Source: Escherichia coli (lineage in GTDB: Bacteria > Pseudomonadota > Gammaproteobacteria > Enterobacterales > Enterobacteriaceae). Taken from it: a DNA stretch of 64,000 nucleotides. The stretch lies in assembly GCF_051903065.1 (NCBI RefSeq), contig NZ_CP178438.1, one strand, 5' to 3'. Positions 25,949 through 36,801 of this stretch are shown here, in pieces (the first letter of the stretch is position 1; each line of letters starts with the position of its first letter). The translations under genes and the position numbers were made by a program. The notes beneath the pieces were generated by a model that was given only the letters and a program-made list of their open reading frames with translations, ran no database searches and was not told where the DNA came from.

Positions 25949-27232
25949 TTACTTCTTCGCCTCTGCAACCACTTTGCTACCCACGCCGCGATTATTGTAT
26001 TCCCACATGCGGTTGTAGTTAGTGTCATTCAGATTGCGCTGTATTTCGTCGCTATCGTCAACGCTGCCGGTATTACCCGCAAATGGACGATTGGAAATCA
26101 CCGCATCGCCCCACGGTTTAACCGTGTTAAAACCTTCGTTGATGGCGCTATCACGGATCACCACCTGACCGTTGGTATTGGCATCAACATCCAGCGAGCG
26201 GCCCAGTTGTGCCACGCCATCACCGGAAGCATTGAAACGGCTGTTTACGGCGAGGAAACCGTAATAGATGTTGGACAGCGTAGCCGGTGCAAACACATAC
26301 GCTTCTTGCTGAGTACGTGAGTTCACCACGCGGAATTCGGTGTTATCGAACACCACTGCGCCGCGACCAGAAACGATATCCACATCCCCTTCAATATAGC
26401 TGTTGGTCACCAGCGTACGCGGCTGACGGTTGGTTTCCAGACGGTTCTGCACACCGCTGTTGGTGACAAAGAAGGTGTTCTGACGACCGAGAATGTTAAC
26501 GTTGTTAATCTGTACCTGGTCACCGTCAGTACGCAGTGCCACCGCCGGATGGTTACCTGCATCTACGCTATCGCCCAGCGTGTTTTCGATGGTCAGATTT
26601 TGCAGTTGCAGGCCATTGTTTTGTGACCAGAAGACCGCAGAACACAGAACACCGATACTGTCGCTGCGTTTGCTCTGGCAGCTATCGTACATATACCACG
26701 CTGGTTTACCTGGCATATATTTGCCGCGCGGGTTGACGTCGTGACGCCAGTCGGCAGGGCTCATGCCACCATCAAGGGAAAGCCCAATCTTCACATCAAT
26801 CGGTTTTTCACCTGTACCGTACAGAGTAATTCCACCCGGGGCGGCAGGGACATACACCGTTCCCTGATACTCACCAGGCATCACGGCAATATACTGGCGC
26901 TTGTTGGTACGCTTGATAATTGCCGCATCTACCGCCGCCTGAATCGTGGTATGCGTTACACCTTGAGTACCCGCCGGGCCGACAACAAAGTCAGGTTGTG
27001 TAGGCAGGGTAATCGGGGAAGGATTCCACGCTGCAGCACCTGGTGTCAGGGATGCAAAATAGTGTTGAGCATCGAAATTCTGCGCTTCTTTTGCCGACAG
27101 AATCGGGCGAGAAGAGGTACCAGGCGCAGTTTGATCAGAAGGACGTTGATCGGGTGGTGTTGAGCTACAGGCGGTCAGCGTCACGCCAAAAGCCAATGCC
27201 AGCGCCAGACGGGAAACTGAAAATGTGTTCAC
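25949..27232 (-). CDS. ybhC: Outer-membrane lipoprotein YbhC (pectinesterase-like fold)
   Basis: 427-aa ORF with lipoprotein signal (LTAC); last backbone gene on the gal side of attλ. Confidence 0.9.
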   Translation of the reverse strand: MNTFSVSRLALALAFGVTLTACSSTPPDQRPSDQTAPGTSSRPILSAKEAQNFDAQHYFASLTPGAAAWNPSPITLPTQPDFVVGPAGTQGVTHTTIQAAVDAAIIKRTNKRQYIAVMPGEYQGTVYVPAAPGGITLYGTGEKPIDVKIGLSLDGGMSPADWRHDVNPRGKYMPGKPAWYMYDSCQSKRSDSIGVLCSAVFWSQNNGLQLQNLTIENTLGDSVDAGNHPAVALRTDGDQVQINNVNILGRQNTFFVTNSGVQNRLETNRQPRTLVTNSYIEGDVDIVSGRGAVVFDNTEFRVVNSRTQQEAYVFAPATLSNIYYGFLAVNSRFNASGDGVAQLGRSLDVDANTNGQVVIRDSAINEGFNTVKPWGDAVISNRPFAGNTGSVDDSDEIQRNLNDTNYNRMWEYNNRGVGSKVVAEAKK

Positions 27233-27267
27233 AGGTTGCTCCGGGCTATGAAATAGAAAAATGAATC

Positions 27268-27366
27268 CGTTGAAGCCTGCTTTTTTATACTAAGTTGGCC
27301 TTATAAAAAAGCATTGCTTATCAATTTGTTGCAACGAACAGGTCACTATCAGTCAAAATAAAATCA
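27268..27366. other. attL (B-O-P'): core plus lambda P' arm
   Basis: GTTGAAGCCTGCTTTTTTATACTAAGTTGGCCTTATAAAAAAGCATTGCTTATCAATTTGTTGCAACGAACAGGTCACTATCAGTCAAAATAAAATCATTATTTG matches the lambda attP P' arm as recalled, with about one mismatch. Confidence 0.9.
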
Positions 27367-28137
27367 TTATTTGATTTCAATTTTGTCCCACTCCCTGCCT
27401 CTGTCATCGCGATACTGTGATGCCATGGTGTCCGACTTATGCCCGAGAAGATGTTGAGCAAACTTATCGCTTATCTGCTTCTCATAGAGTCTTGCAGACA
27501 AACTGCGCAACTCGTGAAAGGTAGGCGGATCCCCTTCGAAGGAAAGACCTGATGCTTTTCGTGCGCGCATAAAATACCTTGATACTGTGCCGGATGAAAG
27601 CGGTTCACGACGGGTAGATGCAATTATGGTTTCTCCGCCAAGAATCTCTTTGCATTTATTAAGTGTTTCCTTCATTGATATCCCGAGAGCATCAACATGC
27701 AATGTTGTAGGGATGGCAATTTTTACGCCTGTTTTGCTTTGCTCGACATAAATATATCCATCTACGATATCAGACCACTTCATTTCGCATAAATCACCAA
27801 CTCGCTGCCCGGTAACAACAGCCAGTTCCATTGCAAGTCTGAGCCAACATGGTGATGATTCTGCTGCTTGATAAATTTTCAGGTATTCATCAGCCGTAAG
27901 TCTTGATCTCCTTACCTCTGATTTTGCTGCGCGAGTGGCAGCGACCGGGTTTGTTGTTGCATGGCCTTCAGCTAATGCCTCTCGGAATGCATCGCTCAGT
28001 GTTGATCTGATTAACTTGGCTGATGCCGCCTTGCCCTCGTCTATGTATCCATTGAGCATTGCCGCAATTTCTTTTGTGGTGATGTCTTCAAGTGGAACAT
28101 CAGGTAGCCCCCTCCTTATTGCTTTAATTTTGCTCAT
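27367..28137 (-). pseudogene. int: Lambda-type integrase Int, 5'-truncated (C-terminal about 255 codons only)
   Basis: Translation MSKIKAIRRGLPD...HLLGHKSDTMASQYRDDRGREWDKIEIK matches lambda Int from about residue 101 to the C-terminus; homology ends at 28137 where the IS left end begins. Confidence 0.9.
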
Positions 28138-29340
28138 GTGTATTAGTCGCGACTTGATCTGACACTGAGCCTTGAAAGGTTGAGAGTTACCGGTTTTGAT
28201 ATGGGTGTCGAATCCTTATACAAAACACGAGGTAACTCTCATGCTTCATACTAACAATCCCGTCATCAAACACAAAGCCGGTTTGCTCAATCTGGCTGAA
28301 GAACTCCGCAATGTTTCGAAGGCCTGCAAAATCATGGGCGTCTCGCGTGATACGTTTTACCGTTATCGCGAACTGGCTGATGAAGGTGGGGTGGATGCAC
28401 TGATTAACCGCACTCGACGAACGCCCAATCTAAAAAATCGTACCGATGATGCAACTGAGCGGGCCGTTGTTGATTATGCCATCGCGTACCCTGCGCATGG
28501 CCAGCACCGGACCAGCAATGAGCTACGTAAGCAAGGTGTCTTCATCTCAGGAAGGGGTGTACGTTCTGTCTGGCTGCGGCATAACCTTGAGAACTTCAAA
28601 AAGCGGCTGAAAGCACTGGAGGAAAAAGTAGCCCGTGACGGTATCGAGCTGACAGAAGCACAGATAGTCGTTCTGGAGCGTAAAGCCAGCGATGACGAAG
28701 CGTGTGGTGAAATCGAAACCGCACATCCCGGTTATCTGGGCTCTCAGGATACGTTCTACGTGGGTAATCTGAAAGGAGTCGGACGCATTTATCAGCAAAC
28801 GTTCGTTGACACCTACTCGAAGGTCGCACACTGTAAACTGTATGTAACCAAAACACCGATCACGGCTGCTGACCTGCTGAATGATCGTGTGTTGCCATTT
28901 TACGAATCGCAAAACCTGCCAATGCTGAGAATACTGACCGACAGAGGAACAGAGTACTGCGGTAAGGTGGAACAGCATGACTACCAGCTATATCTGGCAA
29001 TAAATGATATAGACCACACGAAAACTAAAGCGATGTCACCGCAGACAAATGGCATCTGCGAGCGGTTCCATAAGACGATACTGAACGAATTTTATCAGGT
29101 GACGTTCCGTAAAAAGTTGTATGGAGCTCTCGATACATTGCAATCGGATCTTGATGAGTGGCTGGCTCACTATAATAATGAACGAACCCATCAGGGAAAA
29201 ATGCGCAATGGGCGGACGCCAATGGAAACGTTACTTGATGGAAAGCGCATCTGGGCCGAGAAAAATTTAAGCCGGATGTAATCTGACAGATACCTGTATA
29301 AATAACCGGTAACTGTCAGATCAGGTCTGAGCTAATACAC
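28138..29340 (+). mobile_element. IS element, about 1.2 kb, IS481-like (single-ORF DDE transposase, TGT...ACA termini)
   Basis: Imperfect terminal inverted repeats (left TGTATTAG..TTGATCTGACA, right TGTCAGATCAGGTCTGAGCTAATACACA) flank one transposase ORF; family is my inference. Confidence 0.7.
28241..29281 (+). CDS. DDE transposase (integrase-core type) of the IS element
   Basis: 346 aa from ATG at 28241 (track ORF starts at an upstream TTG); N-terminal HTH and DDE-type core region. Confidence 0.75.
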   Translation: MLHTNNPVIKHKAGLLNLAEELRNVSKACKIMGVSRDTFYRYRELADEGGVDALINRTRRTPNLKNRTDDATERAVVDYAIAYPAHGQHRTSNELRKQGVFISGRGVRSVWLRHNLENFKKRLKALEEKVARDGIELTEAQIVVLERKASDDEACGEIETAHPGYLGSQDTFYVGNLKGVGRIYQQTFVDTYSKVAHCKLYVTKTPITAADLLNDRVLPFYESQNLPMLRILTDRGTEYCGKVEQHDYQLYLAINDIDHTKTKAMSPQTNGICERFHKTILNEFYQVTFRKKLYGALDTLQSDLDEWLAHYNNERTHQGKMRNGRTPMETLLDGKRIWAEKNLSRM

Positions 29341-30238
29341 ATTTGTAGGCCTCGATACATCAGGGACTCCAAATTACGTTATAGATAACAACAGCAAACC
29401 AGCCCAGCGCAATACGATCATCGGTCTCTATGGCGAAATTAACGGGAACGGGATGGTAAGGGGGCCTTGGACAATTCTTGGTGCCAGAGCGCAATATAGT
29501 AGCTGGGTATCAACCATTGACCATATGTCACACCTAATCGGCACCGATGCTACAGCAGGTAACCAGGGGGGGGATACCTTAAGCGCATCAGTAAACAACC
29601 TCTGCCCATCTGGCGACTGGTCATTACTTGATGGTGTTCTTGGCGCTCCAATTGACTATCAGCTACAAGTAGTACCAGCAGAGGCATTGGTTAAAACTGA
29701 TGTAATTGAGCCTTCTGGTGTTGGAAGAGCATTTGGTGTGAATGCTGCAAGCGCCCAATGCAAGATAGTGGTTAACCTGACCAGAGCTAACACAGATTTT
29801 ATCAGGGGAGCATTCTATTGGTGGGGCGATGCTCCATTACAGATCGCATTGGAGACACAAGATAATTCAAATCAGATTTTCTTTCAGCCAGACAAATACT
29901 TTGGCATGAACCATGGAGGCTGGAGGCTTTACAGAATATCTGCCCCTACAAACGACTGGACCAAGGCATACCGTTTGGCAATCACGATATCATCTGGGAA
30001 GTCAGGATTCATAGGTGGTTCAATTTTTAGTTGTTATCAGGCCTCCCTTCTCCCTACTTTTTGTGGATGGAGGCATGTAAAAGTTCTGTCATCGGGTAAG
30101 CCAACAATCACTAACACTTCAGGTTTCGTAAATGGCATCCAGGCACACAGAACCTCTGTGCCATCATACCCAGGGGACCCTACGGTAATGTGGGTATGGA
30201 ACGGAACCACTTGGCTTACAGTGAATGCTTCTGCATAA
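29336..30238 (+). pseudogene. Phage tail-fibre or tailspike gene, 3' fragment only
   Basis: Reading frame opens exactly at the IS right end (29336) and runs to 30238; Gly/Ser/Thr/Trp-rich; sits upstream of gtrCBA as a tailspike does in P22-like phages; assignment is positional and compositional. Confidence 0.5.
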
Positions 30239-30265
30239 AAAAGGGTGGCCTAGCCACCATCTATG

Positions 30266-31873
30266 CTAAATACTTATTTTAACATCTGTATATCTTTCTT
30301 GACCTTTAAATAAACCGAATTCGATCCATTCGATATCACCTTTATCAATGTTTGCCCCTGTTAAAAAACCACCGTCAAAGTTCATTGAGTCAGGGTAGAA
30401 ATCGAAATTTTGTACCTTATCTTTCCCTTTGTATTTGACGTGTAGAAAAATCTTCAGAGCACCATCTTTTGGCAAGGTAATATTTCTGTTAGTCTCGAAT
30501 GCAATACGCCCATCATTTGTAATATAAACGTTCTTAACATCCGCTTGGCGTGGAATTATGTTTTTGTTTACGACCATCTTTTTTCCGCTGAATACAATCG
30601 AGTAGTCCAGTTTCGCCATATTCCTTTCAATTGAAAGCACCCCATAGTACTTTCCATAAGACCACTTGTTATGGTAAGGATCAAACTTGTCTCCACTCTT
30701 GGCAAGTTTAGAAAAATAGAAATCAGGTATTCTCAACTCCCTTTTCCCTTGCGAGATTTGCTTGTCGATTAAATACTTTCTAACCTCTGATTGATGGAAA
30801 GTTTCTTTGTAAGATTCATACATCCAAAGGTATTGAGGTATAAAATACAATATAACCAAAGCAAATAATGAGCATGTCAAATATTTTTGAGTTAAAGTGA
30901 AAAAAGAATCCTTTAATAAAAAAGATACAGCAATCAAAACAAGAATCAAAGTGCCATTTGCAGCCCTGGGAGGATAGGAAGGTGCTGCAAACATAATTAA
31001 GGATGTGGATAATGCTGCAAATAAGAATATCAATGCTAATGTTGTTGATTTCTTATCTGTCTTTTCGCGCAAGAGATTTATTAATGCGATAATTGTGAAA
31101 GCCAGAAATAAAGGCCACATGATGGAAATGACATCGGGCATCCTGGAGTATAAATGCTCAACTAGCCTTTCAATTAAAGGTTTAGAGTACCAGGCGCTAA
31201 AAGATTTGGCTCTTTCATAATTTCCTGGAGCGGCAATTAAGGCGATGAATCCCGCTAAAGATAATAAGGTATAGATAAGCCCTCTATGGCGTAAAGACCT
31301 AATTATATACGCATTATATAAATAATAAATGCCAGAGAGAATAACAACTACCGCGCCAGTATTTTCGTTTGAGCACCCCGCCATCACTGCGAGAATGGAG
31401 GTTAAATAGATGTTATATCTTTTTATTACGCACAATAAGTATGCGCAAATGAACATGTTTGTCCAAAGGTAATTTGCTGAACCAACAATCCAGAAAGTGG
31501 TTTGCCCTAAATTTGTATTGCTTACCCAGTAAAGCATAAAAATAGTTAATATTTTTATGCAATCGAATTTATTTATCTCTCCTGCTGAAGAACCAATAAG
31601 AAATATTAAATAAACACTTGAAGTCAATGCTAGTGAATTTGCTATTGCTCTATAAAATTCAGGAATGGAAAGCATCGCTGTGCTGGCATAATCAGCCACT
31701 ATTCTGCCACTCCAGCTCTCATAGTGCTTTAAGTGCTCAGAAATACTTAATCCCTTTAACGCGTAAAGATAATCATCTGAATGCATGGGTGTATGCATGC
31801 AAATGCTAAGAGTAATAAAAAATATTACTAACAAAGATAATGTATGTAAAAAATAACTATTTATTCTAGGCAT
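30266..31873 (-). CDS. GtrC-like serotype-specific O-antigen glucosyltransferase (polytopic membrane N-domain plus soluble C-domain)
   Basis: 535-aa ORF, about 10 predicted TM segments then a roughly 200-aa hydrophilic domain; AT-rich; downstream of gtrB with 1-bp overlap. Confidence 0.65.
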   Translation of the reverse strand: MPRINSYFLHTLSLLVIFFITLSICMHTPMHSDDYLYALKGLSISEHLKHYESWSGRIVADYASTAMLSIPEFYRAIANSLALTSSVYLIFLIGSSAGEINKFDCIKILTIFMLYWVSNTNLGQTTFWIVGSANYLWTNMFICAYLLCVIKRYNIYLTSILAVMAGCSNENTGAVVVILSGIYYLYNAYIIRSLRHRGLIYTLLSLAGFIALIAAPGNYERAKSFSAWYSKPLIERLVEHLYSRMPDVISIMWPLFLAFTIIALINLLREKTDKKSTTLALIFLFAALSTSLIMFAAPSYPPRAANGTLILVLIAVSFLLKDSFFTLTQKYLTCSLFALVILYFIPQYLWMYESYKETFHQSEVRKYLIDKQISQGKRELRIPDFYFSKLAKSGDKFDPYHNKWSYGKYYGVLSIERNMAKLDYSIVFSGKKMVVNKNIIPRQADVKNVYITNDGRIAFETNRNITLPKDGALKIFLHVKYKGKDKVQNFDFYPDSMNFDGGFLTGANIDKGDIEWIEFGLFKGQERYTDVKISI

Positions 31874-32790
31874 TACTTATTATCCTTCAAAATATAACGA
31901 GGACGCTGCTTAACCTCGACATAAATTCTTCCTATATATTCACCCAGGACACCGATTCCGATCAACTGGATGCCTCCAAGAAACAGGGTAGAAACCAGTA
32001 AAGATGGATACCCACGCACGGCGTTACCGAATGCAATCGTGTCAAATATCATCCAAGCACCATAAAGAAAGGCAGCACCGGCAACGAACAGGCCAATGTA
32101 AGTCCACATGCGCAGCGGAAAGGTAGAGAAGCTGGTGATCCCCTCAAGGGCAAGGTTCCAGAGTTTCCAACCGTTGAACTTCGTGCTGCCAGCTACGCGT
32201 TCTGCGCGCGCATATTCAACCACATCAGTGCGTCCGCCAACCCAGCTCAATACGCCCTTCATGAACAGGTTGCGTTCTGGCATGAGCTTAATGTTTTCCA
32301 CTACTTCGCGAGACATGAGCCGGAAGTCGCCGACATTCTCTTCTATCTGAGGGTTGCTGATTTTGTTGTGAAGTTTATAGAACCACTCAGCAGATTTACG
32401 CTTCAGCCGGCTGTCAGTGGAGCGGTCAGATCGCTTAGCCAGCACCATATCAGCCCCGGCCTGCCACTTCTCGATGAGGTGAGGAATGACCTCAATCGGG
32501 TCCTGAAGGTCAACATCAATCGGGATAACCGCCTCACCAGTTGCGTGGTCAAGCCCTGCGAACAGTGCGGGCTCTTTACCGAAATTACGGGTGAAGGAAA
32601 GAGGAACGACAAGCGGATCAGCCACAGCAAGCGCGTTTATAATTGATTCTGTCGCGTCTTTGCTGCCGTCATTTATGAAGACTATCTCGACTTCATGCTG
32701 CTGAAGCCCTTCAAATTCCCGAACAGTTTTATAAAAAATAGGTATCGCGTCTTCTTCGTTAAAGACGGGAACGACCAGAGAAATTTTCAT
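31873..32790 (-). CDS. gtrB: Bactoprenol glucosyltransferase GtrB (GT2 family)
   Basis: 305-aa ORF starting [13 protein letters not shown] with DxD-type region and two C-terminal TM helices. Confidence 0.9.
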
Positions 32791-33149
32791 TTCGCATCCC
32801 TAAAGACAATGAACTTTGAATAAATAAAACCGCACACCAGACTGATGGCGGAGAAGGTGATAAGAGTGATAATTGGAGGAAGCGAGCACTTATCAGCAGC
32901 CCATCCAACAGTAGCACTCAGTGTTCCCATGAACCCGACATATAACATGTAGCGCATCGTTGTAGTCGATGCTTTGAATGTGAATTTTGCATTCGCGAAG
33001 AAGCTAAAGCTCACAGCCACAACGAAACCTGCGAAGTTTGCCAGAGCCTGATTGGTATGCGCGGCATAGATACATACACCAAAAACCACCCAGTGTATAA
33101 GTGTGTTCAGCACACCAATCGAGGTGTACTTTGCAAATAGCTTTAACAT
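32787..33149 (-). CDS. gtrA: GtrA flippase-like small membrane protein
   Basis: 120-aa four-TM ORF directly upstream of gtrB with 4-bp overlap. Confidence 0.85.
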
Positions 33150-33454
33150 TTCTTCTATCAGCTAATAATCAAAGGCATGAAGTCTATCATCCAAGTCTCA
33201 ATCGATCGATGACTTGCTGTGGTTGATGAGACAAAACTGATGCACACAAAGATTTGCACTGGATTGCAAGGCTTTGTGCTCTTCGATAGTTGTTAAGGTG
33301 GATCACTCCGGCTTTTCATCAATCCAGTCCGCCCACCACTGCATCATCTCCCTGCGCTTATCGAGATACTGAGCATGGTTGTAAATTCAACTAACCCAGT
33401 GCATTGACAAAAAATTAGTGCAAGAAGACAAAAATCACCTTGCGCTAATGCTCT

Positions 33455-33625
33455 GTCTCAGGTCACTAATGCTATCTAAGTAGTTGATTCATAGTGACTG
33501 GATATGTTGTGTTTTGTAGCATTACGCAGTCTATTTATTAGACTAAAGATATTGTAATGCATTGATATTAATGGTTTTTAATGTTTCACGTTCAGCTTTT
33601 TTATACTAACTTGAGCGAAACGGGA
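33455..33625. other. attR (P-O-B'): diverged P arm, core, chromosomal B' arm
   Basis: P-arm-like sequence (...CAGGTCACTAATGCTATCTAAGTAGTTGATTCATAGTGACTGGATATGTTGTG...) roughly 80% similar to lambda P arm by eye; core at 33595-33609; then CTTGAGCGAAACGGG. Confidence 0.8.
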
Positions 33626-33699
33626 AGGTAAAAAGACAAAAAGTTGTTTTTAATACCTTTAAGTGATACCAGATAGCATTGCGCCATCTGGCAGAGTAA

Positions 33700-34176
33700 T
33701 TAACTAAACATCGCGGTAATCGATGCGCTTGCCAGAGAGTGGAAATGAACGTTAAACCCGACCATCGCGCCGCTGGCTCCTTCATCGACATCAATACGCT
33801 CTACATCCAGCGCGTGAACGGTAAAAATGTAGCGATGGGTTTCGCCTTTCGGCGGCGCTGCGCCATCGTATCCGGTTTTACCAAAATCGGTACGCGTCTG
33901 CAAAACGCCGTCTGGCATTGCTACCAGACCAGAGCCAAACCCTTGCGGTAATACGCGGGTATCAGCGGGTAAATTAACAACTACCCAGTGCCACTAGCCG
34001 GAGCCGGTTGGCGCATCCGGGTCGTAGCAGGTGACGACAAAACTTTTCGTTCCCGCAGGAACATCATCCCACGCCAGATGCGGTGAAATATTATCGCCAT
34101 CGTAACCCATGCCGTTAAAGACATGACGATGTGGCAACTTATCGCCATCGCGCAGATCATTACTGATGAGTTTCAT
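33700..34176 (-). pseudogene. ybhB: ybhB (PEBP/RKIP-family protein) with in-frame amber stop
   Basis: Track ORFs 33994-34176 and 33700-33918 are one frame split by TAG at 33994-33996, where I recall Trp in K-12 YbhB; downstream sequence WHWVVVNLPADTRVLPQGFGSGLVAMPDG... stays in frame. Confidence 0.85.
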
Positions 34177-34284
34177 TAGAATGCCTCCGGGAAACCTCGG
34201 CCTTCAGGCCGGGGAGGAAAGGAGGCGGTTTTCCGACTAACTGTACTTTGCATAATTACATTTTCCTCTTTAGTATGTGAACAC

Positions 34285-35401
34285 ATGAAACGCGCATATA
34301 AATACCGGTTTTACCCGACAACTGAGCAGGCTGAGCTTTTAGCTCAGACGTTCGGCTGTGTGCGCTTCGTCTACAATTCCATCCTTCGTTGGCGTACCGA
34401 TGCGTACTACGAGCGAAAGGAAAAGATCGGTTATCTACAGGCCAACGCTCGCCTTACGGCGCTCAAAAAAGAGCCTGAATACATATGGCTGAATGTCCCC
34501 TCCAGCAGTCGTTGCGCCACCAACAAGCCGCCTTTGCTAACTTCTTTGCCGGACGAGCTGCATATCCGGCTTTCAAAAGCAAACGGCACAAACAGGTGGC
34601 TGAGTTCACTGCCAGCGCGTTTAAACACCGTGACGGCGAGTTGTATATAGCAAAAGCAAGTCGCCTCTGGATGTTCGCTGGAGTCGAGAATTACCCTCTG
34701 CGCCGTCAACCGTTACCATTTCCAGAGATAGCGCTGGCAGGTACTTTGTTTCCTGCCTGTGTGAGTTTGAACCTGTATCAATGCCTGTTACCGCTAAAAC
34801 GGTCGGCATTGATGTGGGCTTAAAAGATTTATTCGTTACCGATACCGGATTCAAAACCGACAATCCCCGCCACACCGCTAAATATGCGAAGCGATTAACG
34901 CTGCTACAGCGATGTTTAAGCAGGAAGCAAAAAGGCTCAAGAAACCGTATTAAAGCCCGCTTAAAGGTCGCCCGACTCCACGCGAAAATCGCCGATTGCC
35001 GGATGGACAATCTACACAAGTTGTCCCGCAAACTGATTAACGAAAACCAAGTTGTTTGCGTCGAATCCCTCAAGGTGAAAAACATGATCCGCAACCCGAA
35101 GCTGTCTAAAGCAATAGCTGACGCAGGCTGGAGCGAACTTGTTCGCCAGCTCCAGTACAAAGGCAAATGGGCCGAGCGGTCAGTGGTCGCCATTGACCAG
35201 TATTTACCGTCCTCAAAATGCTGTAGTTGCTGCGGTTTCACCATGCAAAAAATGCCTCTTAATGTTCGTAAATGGCACTGCCCTGAATGCGGCGCAGACC
35301 ATGATCGCGACATTAACGCGGCACGTAATATTAAAGCTGCCGGGCTGGCAGTGTTAGCCCACGGAGAGCCTGTAAACCCTGAATCGCAGCACGCGGCTTA
35401 G
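34285..35401 (+). pseudogene. tnpB: IS200/IS605-family tnpB (RNA-guided nuclease family), two frameshifts
   Basis: N-terminus MKRAYKYRFYPTTEQAELLAQTFGCVRFVYN; middle and C-terminal parts (VTISRDSAGRYFVSCLCEF, GIDVGLKDLF, CxxC...CxxC zinc finger) lie in two other frames; no tnpA nearby. Confidence 0.85.
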
Positions 35402-35511
35402 GTTCGGCTCGTTGAAGTGGGAATCCCCGTCATTCGGGGCGGGGAGCCGTCAAGAACCCTCCTTTCTAGTTTGCAGAAAGTGTAGCCAGAAACCCTCACG
35501 CTGACTTCCCG

Positions 35512-36801
35512 TTATTGGCAAAAAAATGTTTCATCCTGCACCGCACGGTTAACCGCTGCGGTCAGACGCTGCAACTGTTGCGGGAGAATAATATAGGGCG
35601 GCATCAGGTAAATCAGCTTGCCAAAAGGCCGGATCCAGACACCCTGTTCGACAAAGAATTTTTGCAGCGCCGCCATATTCACCGGACGAGTTGTTTCGAC
35701 TACGCCGATTGCCCCCAGCACGCGCACATCGGCAACCATTTCGGCATCACGGGCGGGGGCAAGTTGCTCGCGCAGCTGTACTTCAATAGCCGCCACCTGT
35801 TGCTGCCAGTCGCCAGATTCGAGAATCGCCAGGCTGGCGTTAGCTGCCGCGCAGGCCAGCGGATTACCCATAAAAGTTGGCCCGTGCATAAAGCAGCCGG
35901 CTTCGCCGTTACTGATGGTTTCTGCAACCTCGCGCGTGGTGAGTGTGGCGGAAAGGGTCATTGTGCCGCCGGTTAAGGCTTTACCGAGGCACAAAATGTC
36001 CGGCGCGATTTCTGCATGTTCACAGGCAAACAGTTTGCCGGTACGACCAAATCCGGTGGCGATCTCGTCGGCAATCAGCAAGATACCTTCGCGATCGCAC
36101 ATTTTGCGGATTCGTTTTAACCATTGCGGATGGTACATGCGCATCCCGCCTGCGCCCTGGACAATCGGCTCAATGATCACCGCCGCGATTTCATGACGAT
36201 GCGCCGCCATCAGGCGGGCAAAGCCCACCATATCGCGCTCATCCCATTCACCATCCATGCGGCTTTGCGGGGCGGGAGCAAACAAGTTTTCTGGCAGATA
36301 GCCTTTCCACAGGCTGTGCATTGAGTTGTCCGGATCGCACACCGACATCGCGCCAAAGGTATCGCCATGATAACCATTGCGGAAGGTCAGAAAACGCTGG
36401 CGCGCTTCGCCTTTGGCTTGCCAGTACTGCAACGCCATTTTCATCGCCACTTCCACCGCTACGGAACCGGAGTCCGCGAGAAAAACGCACTCCAGCGGTT
36501 GCGGCGTCATCGCCACCAGTTTGCGGCACAGCTCAATGGCTGGCGCATGAGTGATACCGCCAAACATCACATGCGACATGGCATCAATTTGCGTCTTCAT
36601 CGCCACATTAAGCTGCGGGTGATTGTAGCCGTGGATCGCCGCCCACCAGGACGACATACCGTCAACCAGGCGTCTGCCGTCAGACAAAATTAGCTCGCAA
36701 CCTTCGGCGCTTGCCACCGGATAAACCGGTAGCGGGGAGGTCATGGATGTGTATGGGTGCCAGATATGGCGTTGGTCAAAGGCAAGATCGTCCGTTGTCA
36801 T
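35512..36801 (-). CDS. bioA: Adenosylmethionine-8-amino-7-oxononanoate aminotransferase BioA
   Basis: 429 aa from [17 protein letters not shown]. Confidence 0.95.

Follow-up and report, generated by a model that had tools for sequence, protein, structure and literature searches.

The closest described relatives of the locus that is the subject of this report are the attachment sites of phage lambda (attP, attL and attR), at which Int, IHF, Xis and Fis operate as a heterobivalent tyrosine-recombinase system. In an active prophage, attR binds Int at P2, IHF at H2, Xis at X1-X1.5-X2 and Fis at F, and then pairs with attL for excision. Annotated att features are also to be found in the database records of phages HK97, 434, HK106, HK629 and HK630. 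The lambda attachment site of Escherichia coli can be home to defective as well as intact prophages: in E. coli B and BL21, attB holds the 12.1-kb defective prophage lambda-B, and BL21(DE3) still carries the lambda derivative DE3 at the same place (PMC4395058). Most of the "bacterial" gtrABC clusters sit in prophages that range from intact to highly degraded (PMC2629481). In degraded islands such as CPS-53/KpLE1 of K-12 (yfdGHI) and the gtr clusters of Salmonella and Shigella, the operon has been retained at a prophage end whereas the other phage genes have disappeared.

The locus examined here lies in a 64-kb stretch of E. coli DNA, which was analysed as a whole and is referred to below as the window. 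It brings together two kinds of feature that are both already well known, a lambda-type attL/attR pair and the degraded gtrABC prophage that this pair encloses. The interval 33455-33609, which spans -147 to +7 when counted from the core centre (33602) and covers P1 through the 15-bp core, is the attR of a defective prophage, 6.3 kb in length, that occupies attB-lambda of E. coli between ybhC and ybhB. This element shares its 15-bp core and its chromosomal site with lambda, from which it differs in having a truncated int, no xis and a non-lambda cargo, as well as by 29 substitutions in the P arm that are concentrated in X1.5, X2/F, H2 and the spacers and leave the central arm 72% identical. It fails to match phage lambda itself, given a P arm of 81.9% identity, homology that ends at -197, and a cargo of tailspike and gtrABC genes. 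The attP sites of HK97, JEP4, ev099, Huey and 434 belong to the P-arm class of the window and have a near-identical P' arm, but in these phages int and xis are intact and no gtrABC operon occurs at this position. The lambda-B prophage (REL606, BL21), to which we liken the element by its published description, is also a defective lambdoid prophage that stably occupies attB-lambda in a lineage, with lambda-type att junctions, but differs in content (PMC4395058). Unlike the islands of the CPS-53/KpLE1 type, the gtrABC island of the window is at attB-lambda and not at a tRNA gene, and its GtrC is of the DUF6056 type. Beyond annotation the locus matters little in itself: it amounts to a defective serotype-converting gtrABC island that one E. 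coli lineage carries at its lambda attachment site.

The lambda core GCTTTTTTATACTAA (15 bp) occurs in exactly two exact copies in the 64-kb window, at 27279-27293 and 33595-33609, both on the plus strand and therefore in direct orientation, against a chance expectation of 0.01 matches. The left copy is preceded by the chromosomal B arm on the ybhC side, a flank that is exactly that of K-12 attB, and is followed by GTTGGCCTTATAAAAAAGC..., the P' arm, beyond which comes the 3' end of int, whereby the order is B-O-P'. The right copy has the P arm before it and, after it, CTTGAGCGAAACGG..., the chromosomal B' arm on the ybhB side, so that here the order is P-O-B'. When the two outer flanks are joined through a single core, they restore the empty attB of K-12 MG1655 with 0 mismatches from -120 to +79 and with 16 mismatches in 615 nt overall. 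A chance resemblance to att sites can be dismissed on these counts, and the two exact cores together with flanks that rebuild K-12 attB identify a true attL and a true attR, i.e. a lambda-type integration between ybhC and ybhB. The three sequence blocks that the first-pass annotation had recognized in the P arm are indeed present, CAGGTCACTAAT corresponding to P1, CTAAGTAGTTGATTCATAGTGACTG to H1-P2 and GTTCAGCTTTTTTATACTAA to C plus the core, and its statement that the core is kept at both hybrid sites holds for the copies at 27279 and 33595.

Between the two cores, the P' arm runs into an int pseudogene on the minus strand (27367-28137) that retains only the C-terminal 256 aa (Pfam Phage_integrase, 4e-41; "missing N-terminus" in the PGAP annotation). 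With the N-terminal ~100 aa, the protein has lost its arm-binding domain together with some of the core-binding domain, and xis is absent from the element, so that the att sites have no functional int and xis beside them; the element is therefore unable to excise on its own. The break in int coincides exactly with the start of an IS481-family insertion sequence on the plus strand (28138-29342; HTH plus rve domains; PGAP IS481 family transposase), which is bounded by 29-nt imperfect inverted repeats at 28136-28164 and 29314-29342. In phage RCS47, a transposase region of the ISSod13 family is 81% identical to this IS in nucleotide sequence. The position of the IS exactly between the truncated int and a truncated tailspike ORF marks the junction of a large internal deletion. 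The tailspike (receptor-binding) fragment, at 29345-30238 on the plus strand, consists of the C-terminal part of the protein in a frame that is open from the IS boundary, and matches the C-terminus of the 675-aa tailspike of Kuttervirus CBA6 (tblastn, 44% identity over 287 aa); searches of Pfam, PHROG and PDB sequences yielded no match for it. This match, to the C-terminal 290 aa of the tailspike of a Kuttervirus (Ackermannviridae), is the only one in phages, and suggests a receptor-binding module common to temperate P22-like and virulent ViI-like phages.

The remainder of the element is taken up largely by a predicted gtrABC O-antigen glucosylation operon, as judged from domains and ORF layout, in which the GtrA, GtrB and GtrC ORFs overlap or abut over 30266-33149 on the minus strand, next to the prophage att site. 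The gtrC-type gene for a serotype-specific O-antigen glycosyltransferase (30266-31873) matches Pfam DUF6056 (3e-66), the annotation also given to GtrC of phage epsilon34, and has PHROG matches; gtrB (31873-32790) specifies a bactoprenol glucosyltransferase of family GT2 (Pfam Glycos_transf_2, 1e-29) and gtrA (32787-33149) a flippase (Pfam GtrA_DPMS_TM). The gtrB and gtrA genes are 81-85% identical in nucleotide sequence to those of phage HF4s and of the Shigella serotype-converting phages SfIV, SfII, SfI and SfV. Between gtrA and the P arm lies the sib/tI hairpin of the int retroregulation region (33401-33457, minus strand), which is conserved in all of the panel phages and is annotated as sib in HK97. 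RNA folding indicates that the hairpin is intact (-22.6 kcal/mol, z=-3.5); a simple terminator scan missed it, and an Rfam search of 26500-36000 returned no match. To the left of sib, a further ~190 nt (33215-33405) are common, at 88-93% identity, to JEP4, 434 and the IMG/VR contig L015 and are not found in HK97, and only a 39-nt patch of them (33242-33280) is shared with lambda. The corresponding stretch of phage 434 has annotated cII-binding sites and a small ORF, and PGAP places an 84-nt pseudo-ORF at 33304-33387 in the window.

The first-pass annotation had described the two att arms as a mosaic, with a P' arm nearly identical to that of lambda and a P arm that is clearly diverged, and the measurements against the lambda reference (J02459) bear out this asymmetry. 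The P' arm (+8 to +80; 27294-27366, plus strand), with the sites C', H', P'1, P'2 and P'3, matches lambda at 72 of 73 positions, the sole difference being A->C at +14, and the retained 3' part of int is 96.6% identical to lambda in nucleotide sequence. The P arm (-160 to -8; 33442-33594, plus strand) is the diverged one: over -160 to -1 it matches lambda at 131 of 160 positions (81.9%), with 29 substitutions. The pairwise alignment with lambda that had been proposed as a check thus gives different identities for the two arms. The many indels that had been reported for the P arm were not seen, however, since there are 0 gap columns in -160 to -1 and indels occur only to the left of about -197, where homology to lambda ends. 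The differences from lambda are concentrated in the central P arm (-92 to -8), where 24 of 85 positions differ and 61 match, as compared with 21 of 859 in the core, the P' arm and int taken together (Fisher p=2.8e-15). A mosaic with just one boundary, placed right at the core, such as might result from Int-mediated exchange of arms, is only partly tenable, in that divergence jumps within ~14 bp of the core centre. A one-breakpoint model is contradicted by the distal P arm and sib, which are conserved again, so that the pattern is that of a variable island.

Other phages of the attB-lambda site provide a different view of the same arm. Its identity is 93-96% to HK97, ev099, JEP4 and Huey, and 82-85% to lambda, and the remnant cargo (tailspike fragment and gtrABC) is likewise non-lambda content; both observations agree with the earlier proposal of a distinct lambdoid phage with the integration specificity of lambda. 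HK022, which had been suggested as a comparator, was not among the 65 matches listed of the 78 phage records that match the P arm of the window. Counted over the 85 positions of the central P arm, the window differs from JEP4 and from contig L015 at 4, from the E. coli sequence Ec_ABW_S38 at 6, from HK97 and ev099 at 8 each, from Huey at 9, from 434 at 11 and from lambda at 24. The allele class is one that GenBank already holds (HK97, 434, HK106 and JEP4), and the P arm of the window is a normal member of what is the commonest natural class, that of HK97, JEP4 and ev099. Of the 29 differences from lambda, 27 are common to free-living phages such as these three, and only two, those at -77 and -65, occur in none of the 20 comparators and so are private to the window, which argues that the arm is an inherited natural allele and not a product of decay.

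The same asymmetry recurs when phages other than that of the window are compared with one another. Among the 11 phages and viral contigs of the panel, differences amount to 0-4 of 73 positions in P' and 0-16 of 771 in the 3' part of int, and to as many as 25 of 85 in the central P arm; lambda and HK97 alone differ at 5 of 771 positions in int, at 0 of 73 in P' and at 21 of 85 in the central P arm (p=4e-19). Within the panel, the +14 C in the P' arm of the window is common only to 434 and to the IMG/VR contig L013. The arm asymmetry is thus a property of the whole phage family and nothing special to this locus, and the impression of a mosaic arises because lambda, whose P arm is a minority allele in E. 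coli, was taken as the reference. The alternative that the first-pass annotation had put forward, recombination within the arm, fares differently at the two levels. At this locus, a comparison with JEP4 gives 4 differences of 85 on the P side and 20 of 859 on the core-P'-int side, with no significant difference between them (p=0.26), and provides no sign of it; for the phage family the evidence is ample. The P arm was compared in 21 sequences, for which an IMG/VR scan with a core plus C' pattern contributed only 7 loci and E. coli genome matches were sampled in addition, with the sampled strain E2 left out. These represent 20 haplotypes, 143 of 351 informative site pairs fail the four-gamete test, and Rm is at least 9 within 153 bp. 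To judge from these alignments, recombination in the arm and its surroundings does take place in the phage family. The class of P arm that a phage carries is independent of its int allele, as can be seen from ev099 and PDP110P2, which differ at only 4 of 771 positions in int and at 21 of 85 in the central P arm. Exchange might proceed through two homology arms, the conserved sib-P1-H1-P2-X1 block on one side and the core-P'-int block on the other, and classical Int-promoted exchange at the core might be a further contributor.

Variation in the arm has spared those positions on which the recombination proteins would be expected to depend. For the positions of the P1, P2, P'1-P'3, H, X, F and C sites we have assumed those of the lambda attP map. 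On this assumption P1, H1, P2, X1, C, C', H' and P'1-P'3, and with them all five of the arm-type Int sites (P1, P2, P'1, P'2 and P'3), are identical to lambda. The variants of X1.5, X2/F and H2 preserve the consensus: the 2 substitutions in H2 both fall within the NNNN of the IHF consensus WATCAANNNNTTR, and the 4 in the Fis site F leave every specified position of GNNYRNNWNNYRNNC as it is. X1.5 and X2 have 3 substitutions each, and the private T->C change at -77 falls in X2. The possibility that a variant X2 has co-evolved with a variant Xis was considered and discarded, since Xis is identical across all P-arm classes except for single changes in lambda (G59S) and Huey (R29K). The Int proteins of the panel differ from lambda Int by 2-4 aa, and it follows from the near-identity of both proteins that the same proteins act on all of the arms and that the variation is tolerated, not co-evolved. 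In 434 and JEP4, there is a T->A change at attP +10 within the C' core-type Int site (GTAGG, not GTTGG), and the Int proteins of these two phages are, despite the altered C', only 3-4 residues from that of lambda. The attB-lambda phages appear to pair a near-invariant int-P' side with a recombining, hypervariable central P arm in which the consensus-critical positions for Int, IHF, Xis and Fis are constant.

A survey of 5,426 complete E. coli genomes indicates how lambda itself fits into this diversity. Homologues of the P arm of the window were found in 2,066 of the 5,426, forming a continuum of 82-96% identity outside of three identical strains. The 6.3 kb between the cores are 100% identical in three RefSeq E. 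coli chromosomes (23CRST027, 23CRST031 and ECNB21-M121), the only E. coli genomes that carry the remnant, and the best non-identical P arm reaches 95.7%. With the lambda P arm as the query, ~2,009 genomes had a full-length match, which was at least 99% identical in 140 of them, 95-99% in 68, 90-95% in 56 and 80-90% in 1,795. We suspect that many of the matches of at least 99% represent laboratory lysogens. The 73-nt P' arm, by comparison, was found in 1,937 genomes and is 95-100% identical (within 1-3 mismatches) in 1,933 of these. Divergence from the lambda P arm is the normal state in nature, with about 9 in 10 of the full-length arms being only 80-90% identical, and the textbook P arm of lambda represents just one of the many alleles tolerated by these Int and Xis proteins. 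Those who call att sites or prophage ends with lambda attP as the template might take this as a caution. Wild E. coli 32F4 and G5 have P arms of the lambda type or nearly so, and in 32F4 a gtrA gene lies beside the arm.

Taken as a whole, the observations are in our opinion very likely to be explained by a gutted P22-like gtrABC prophage that had integrated by means of a lambda-type Int, suffered a deletion with an IS481-family element at its junction, and left an attR with a P arm of the commonest allele class. The progenitor was probably a P22-like, tailspike-bearing and serotype-converting phage with gtrABC and an int-xis-attP module of the lambda family; P22-like phages show the order tailspike, gtrCBA, attP and int, two such phages, JEP4 and Huey, carry the tailspike immediately upstream of an attP with the lambda core, and gtrB-gtrA lie directly beside such an attP in contig L013. 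No intact phage was found that unites exactly this tailspike, gtrC and P arm. L013 (IMGVR_UViG_2684622670_000019) has, in addition, a P arm of the HK97 class and, in its P' arm, the rare +14 C of the window. The 3' end of its int reaches only ~67% identity in an ungapped-style comparison, and the contig may encode a more distant Int that uses the same core and arms. The internal deletion would have removed everything from about codon 100 of int to the C-terminal part of the tailspike gene, in an order of events that we infer, and would have left attL, a dead int and a host-useful gtrABC operon beside attR. The int-P' segment varies so little in the family that the data fit one source phage for attL and attR as well as two, and a composite origin deserves to be weighed, in which tandem prophages at attB-lambda were fused by an IS-associated deletion, with attL and int contributed by one and the tailspike, gtr genes and attR by the other. 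The IS does lie exactly between the two halves, the absence of linkage between P-arm class and int allele in the family (ev099 and PDP110P2) would accommodate such an origin, and the int fragment, which differs from the int of every panel phage by 14-23 nt, has 10 private substitutions as compared with 2 in the P arm. An excess of private changes is also to be expected of a pseudogene, however, and a tailspike, a P arm of the HK97 class and a lambda-type int are already found together in JEP4 and in Huey, so that one phage and one deletion suffice; since the two sides are also equally diverged from JEP4 (p=0.26), we regard two progenitors as distinctly improbable. A former lambda prophage with a P arm that decayed by mutation after the element had died is, for its part, hardly credible: the prophage is defective and the bases at -77 and -65 are private to its lineage, but the other 27 of the 29 differences are common to living phages, every consensus-critical position has been retained, the P' arm, just as free of selection, has changed at only 1 position, and neither the tailspike nor gtrABC is lambda cargo.

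A separate question is whether the diversity of the central P arm reflects function. The classes might be functionally distinct and kept by selection, with each setting the efficiency of excision and integration, the directionality or the dependence on Fis and IHF, and with the arm of the window as one such setting; if so, its allele, with the private changes in X2/F, would be a functional setting and not neutral noise. The P-arm classes are 20-28% apart in -92 to -8, far above the synonymous divergence of the neighbouring int (dS of 0.04-0.08 from the window to every panel phage and 0.06 to lambda), and the variable stretch covers X1.5, X2, F and H2, sites that control directionality. Against this stands the essential identity of Xis and Int across the classes, and the haplotypes form a recombinant continuum without clean classes, as the 20 haplotypes in 21 sequences and an Rm of at least 9 indicate. 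The substitutions moreover avoid the consensus in the manner of tolerated variation, with variable columns of the panel being rarer inside the annotated sites (15 of 83) than outside (34 of 70). Functional classes maintained by selection therefore seem unlikely to us.

The gutting of the prophage does not seem to have extended to its ends. With all of the Int, IHF, X1 and Fis consensus positions kept, both att sites look competent, and the conserved positions imply that the arms could still serve if Int and Xis were supplied in trans. Neither of the cores nor any of the arm sites is damaged, so that integration of lambda at the occupied site, as the first-pass annotation had envisaged, is plausible if Int is supplied in trans, as is excision if Xis is supplied with it. 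Precedent may be seen in BL21(DE3), in which the attR at that locus has a lambda-type P arm. Our search of the literature found no open-access source for a comparison of the 434 and lambda att sites or for attP x attL/attR integration. The 6.3-kb gtrABC island might conceivably even be excised and passed on when any phage of the attB-lambda family supplies Int and Xis.

The chromosomal side of attR has also undergone changes in this lineage. Immediately to the right of attR, ybhB (33700-34176, minus strand) has a nonsense mutation, W61*, relative to K-12 and is a pseudogene. Farther on, where bioA in K-12 lies within ~60 bp of ybhB with no InsQ/TnpB insertion, the window has a frameshifted InsQ/TnpB element (RNA-guided endonuclease family) at about 34285-35401 on the plus strand, between ybhB and bioA.
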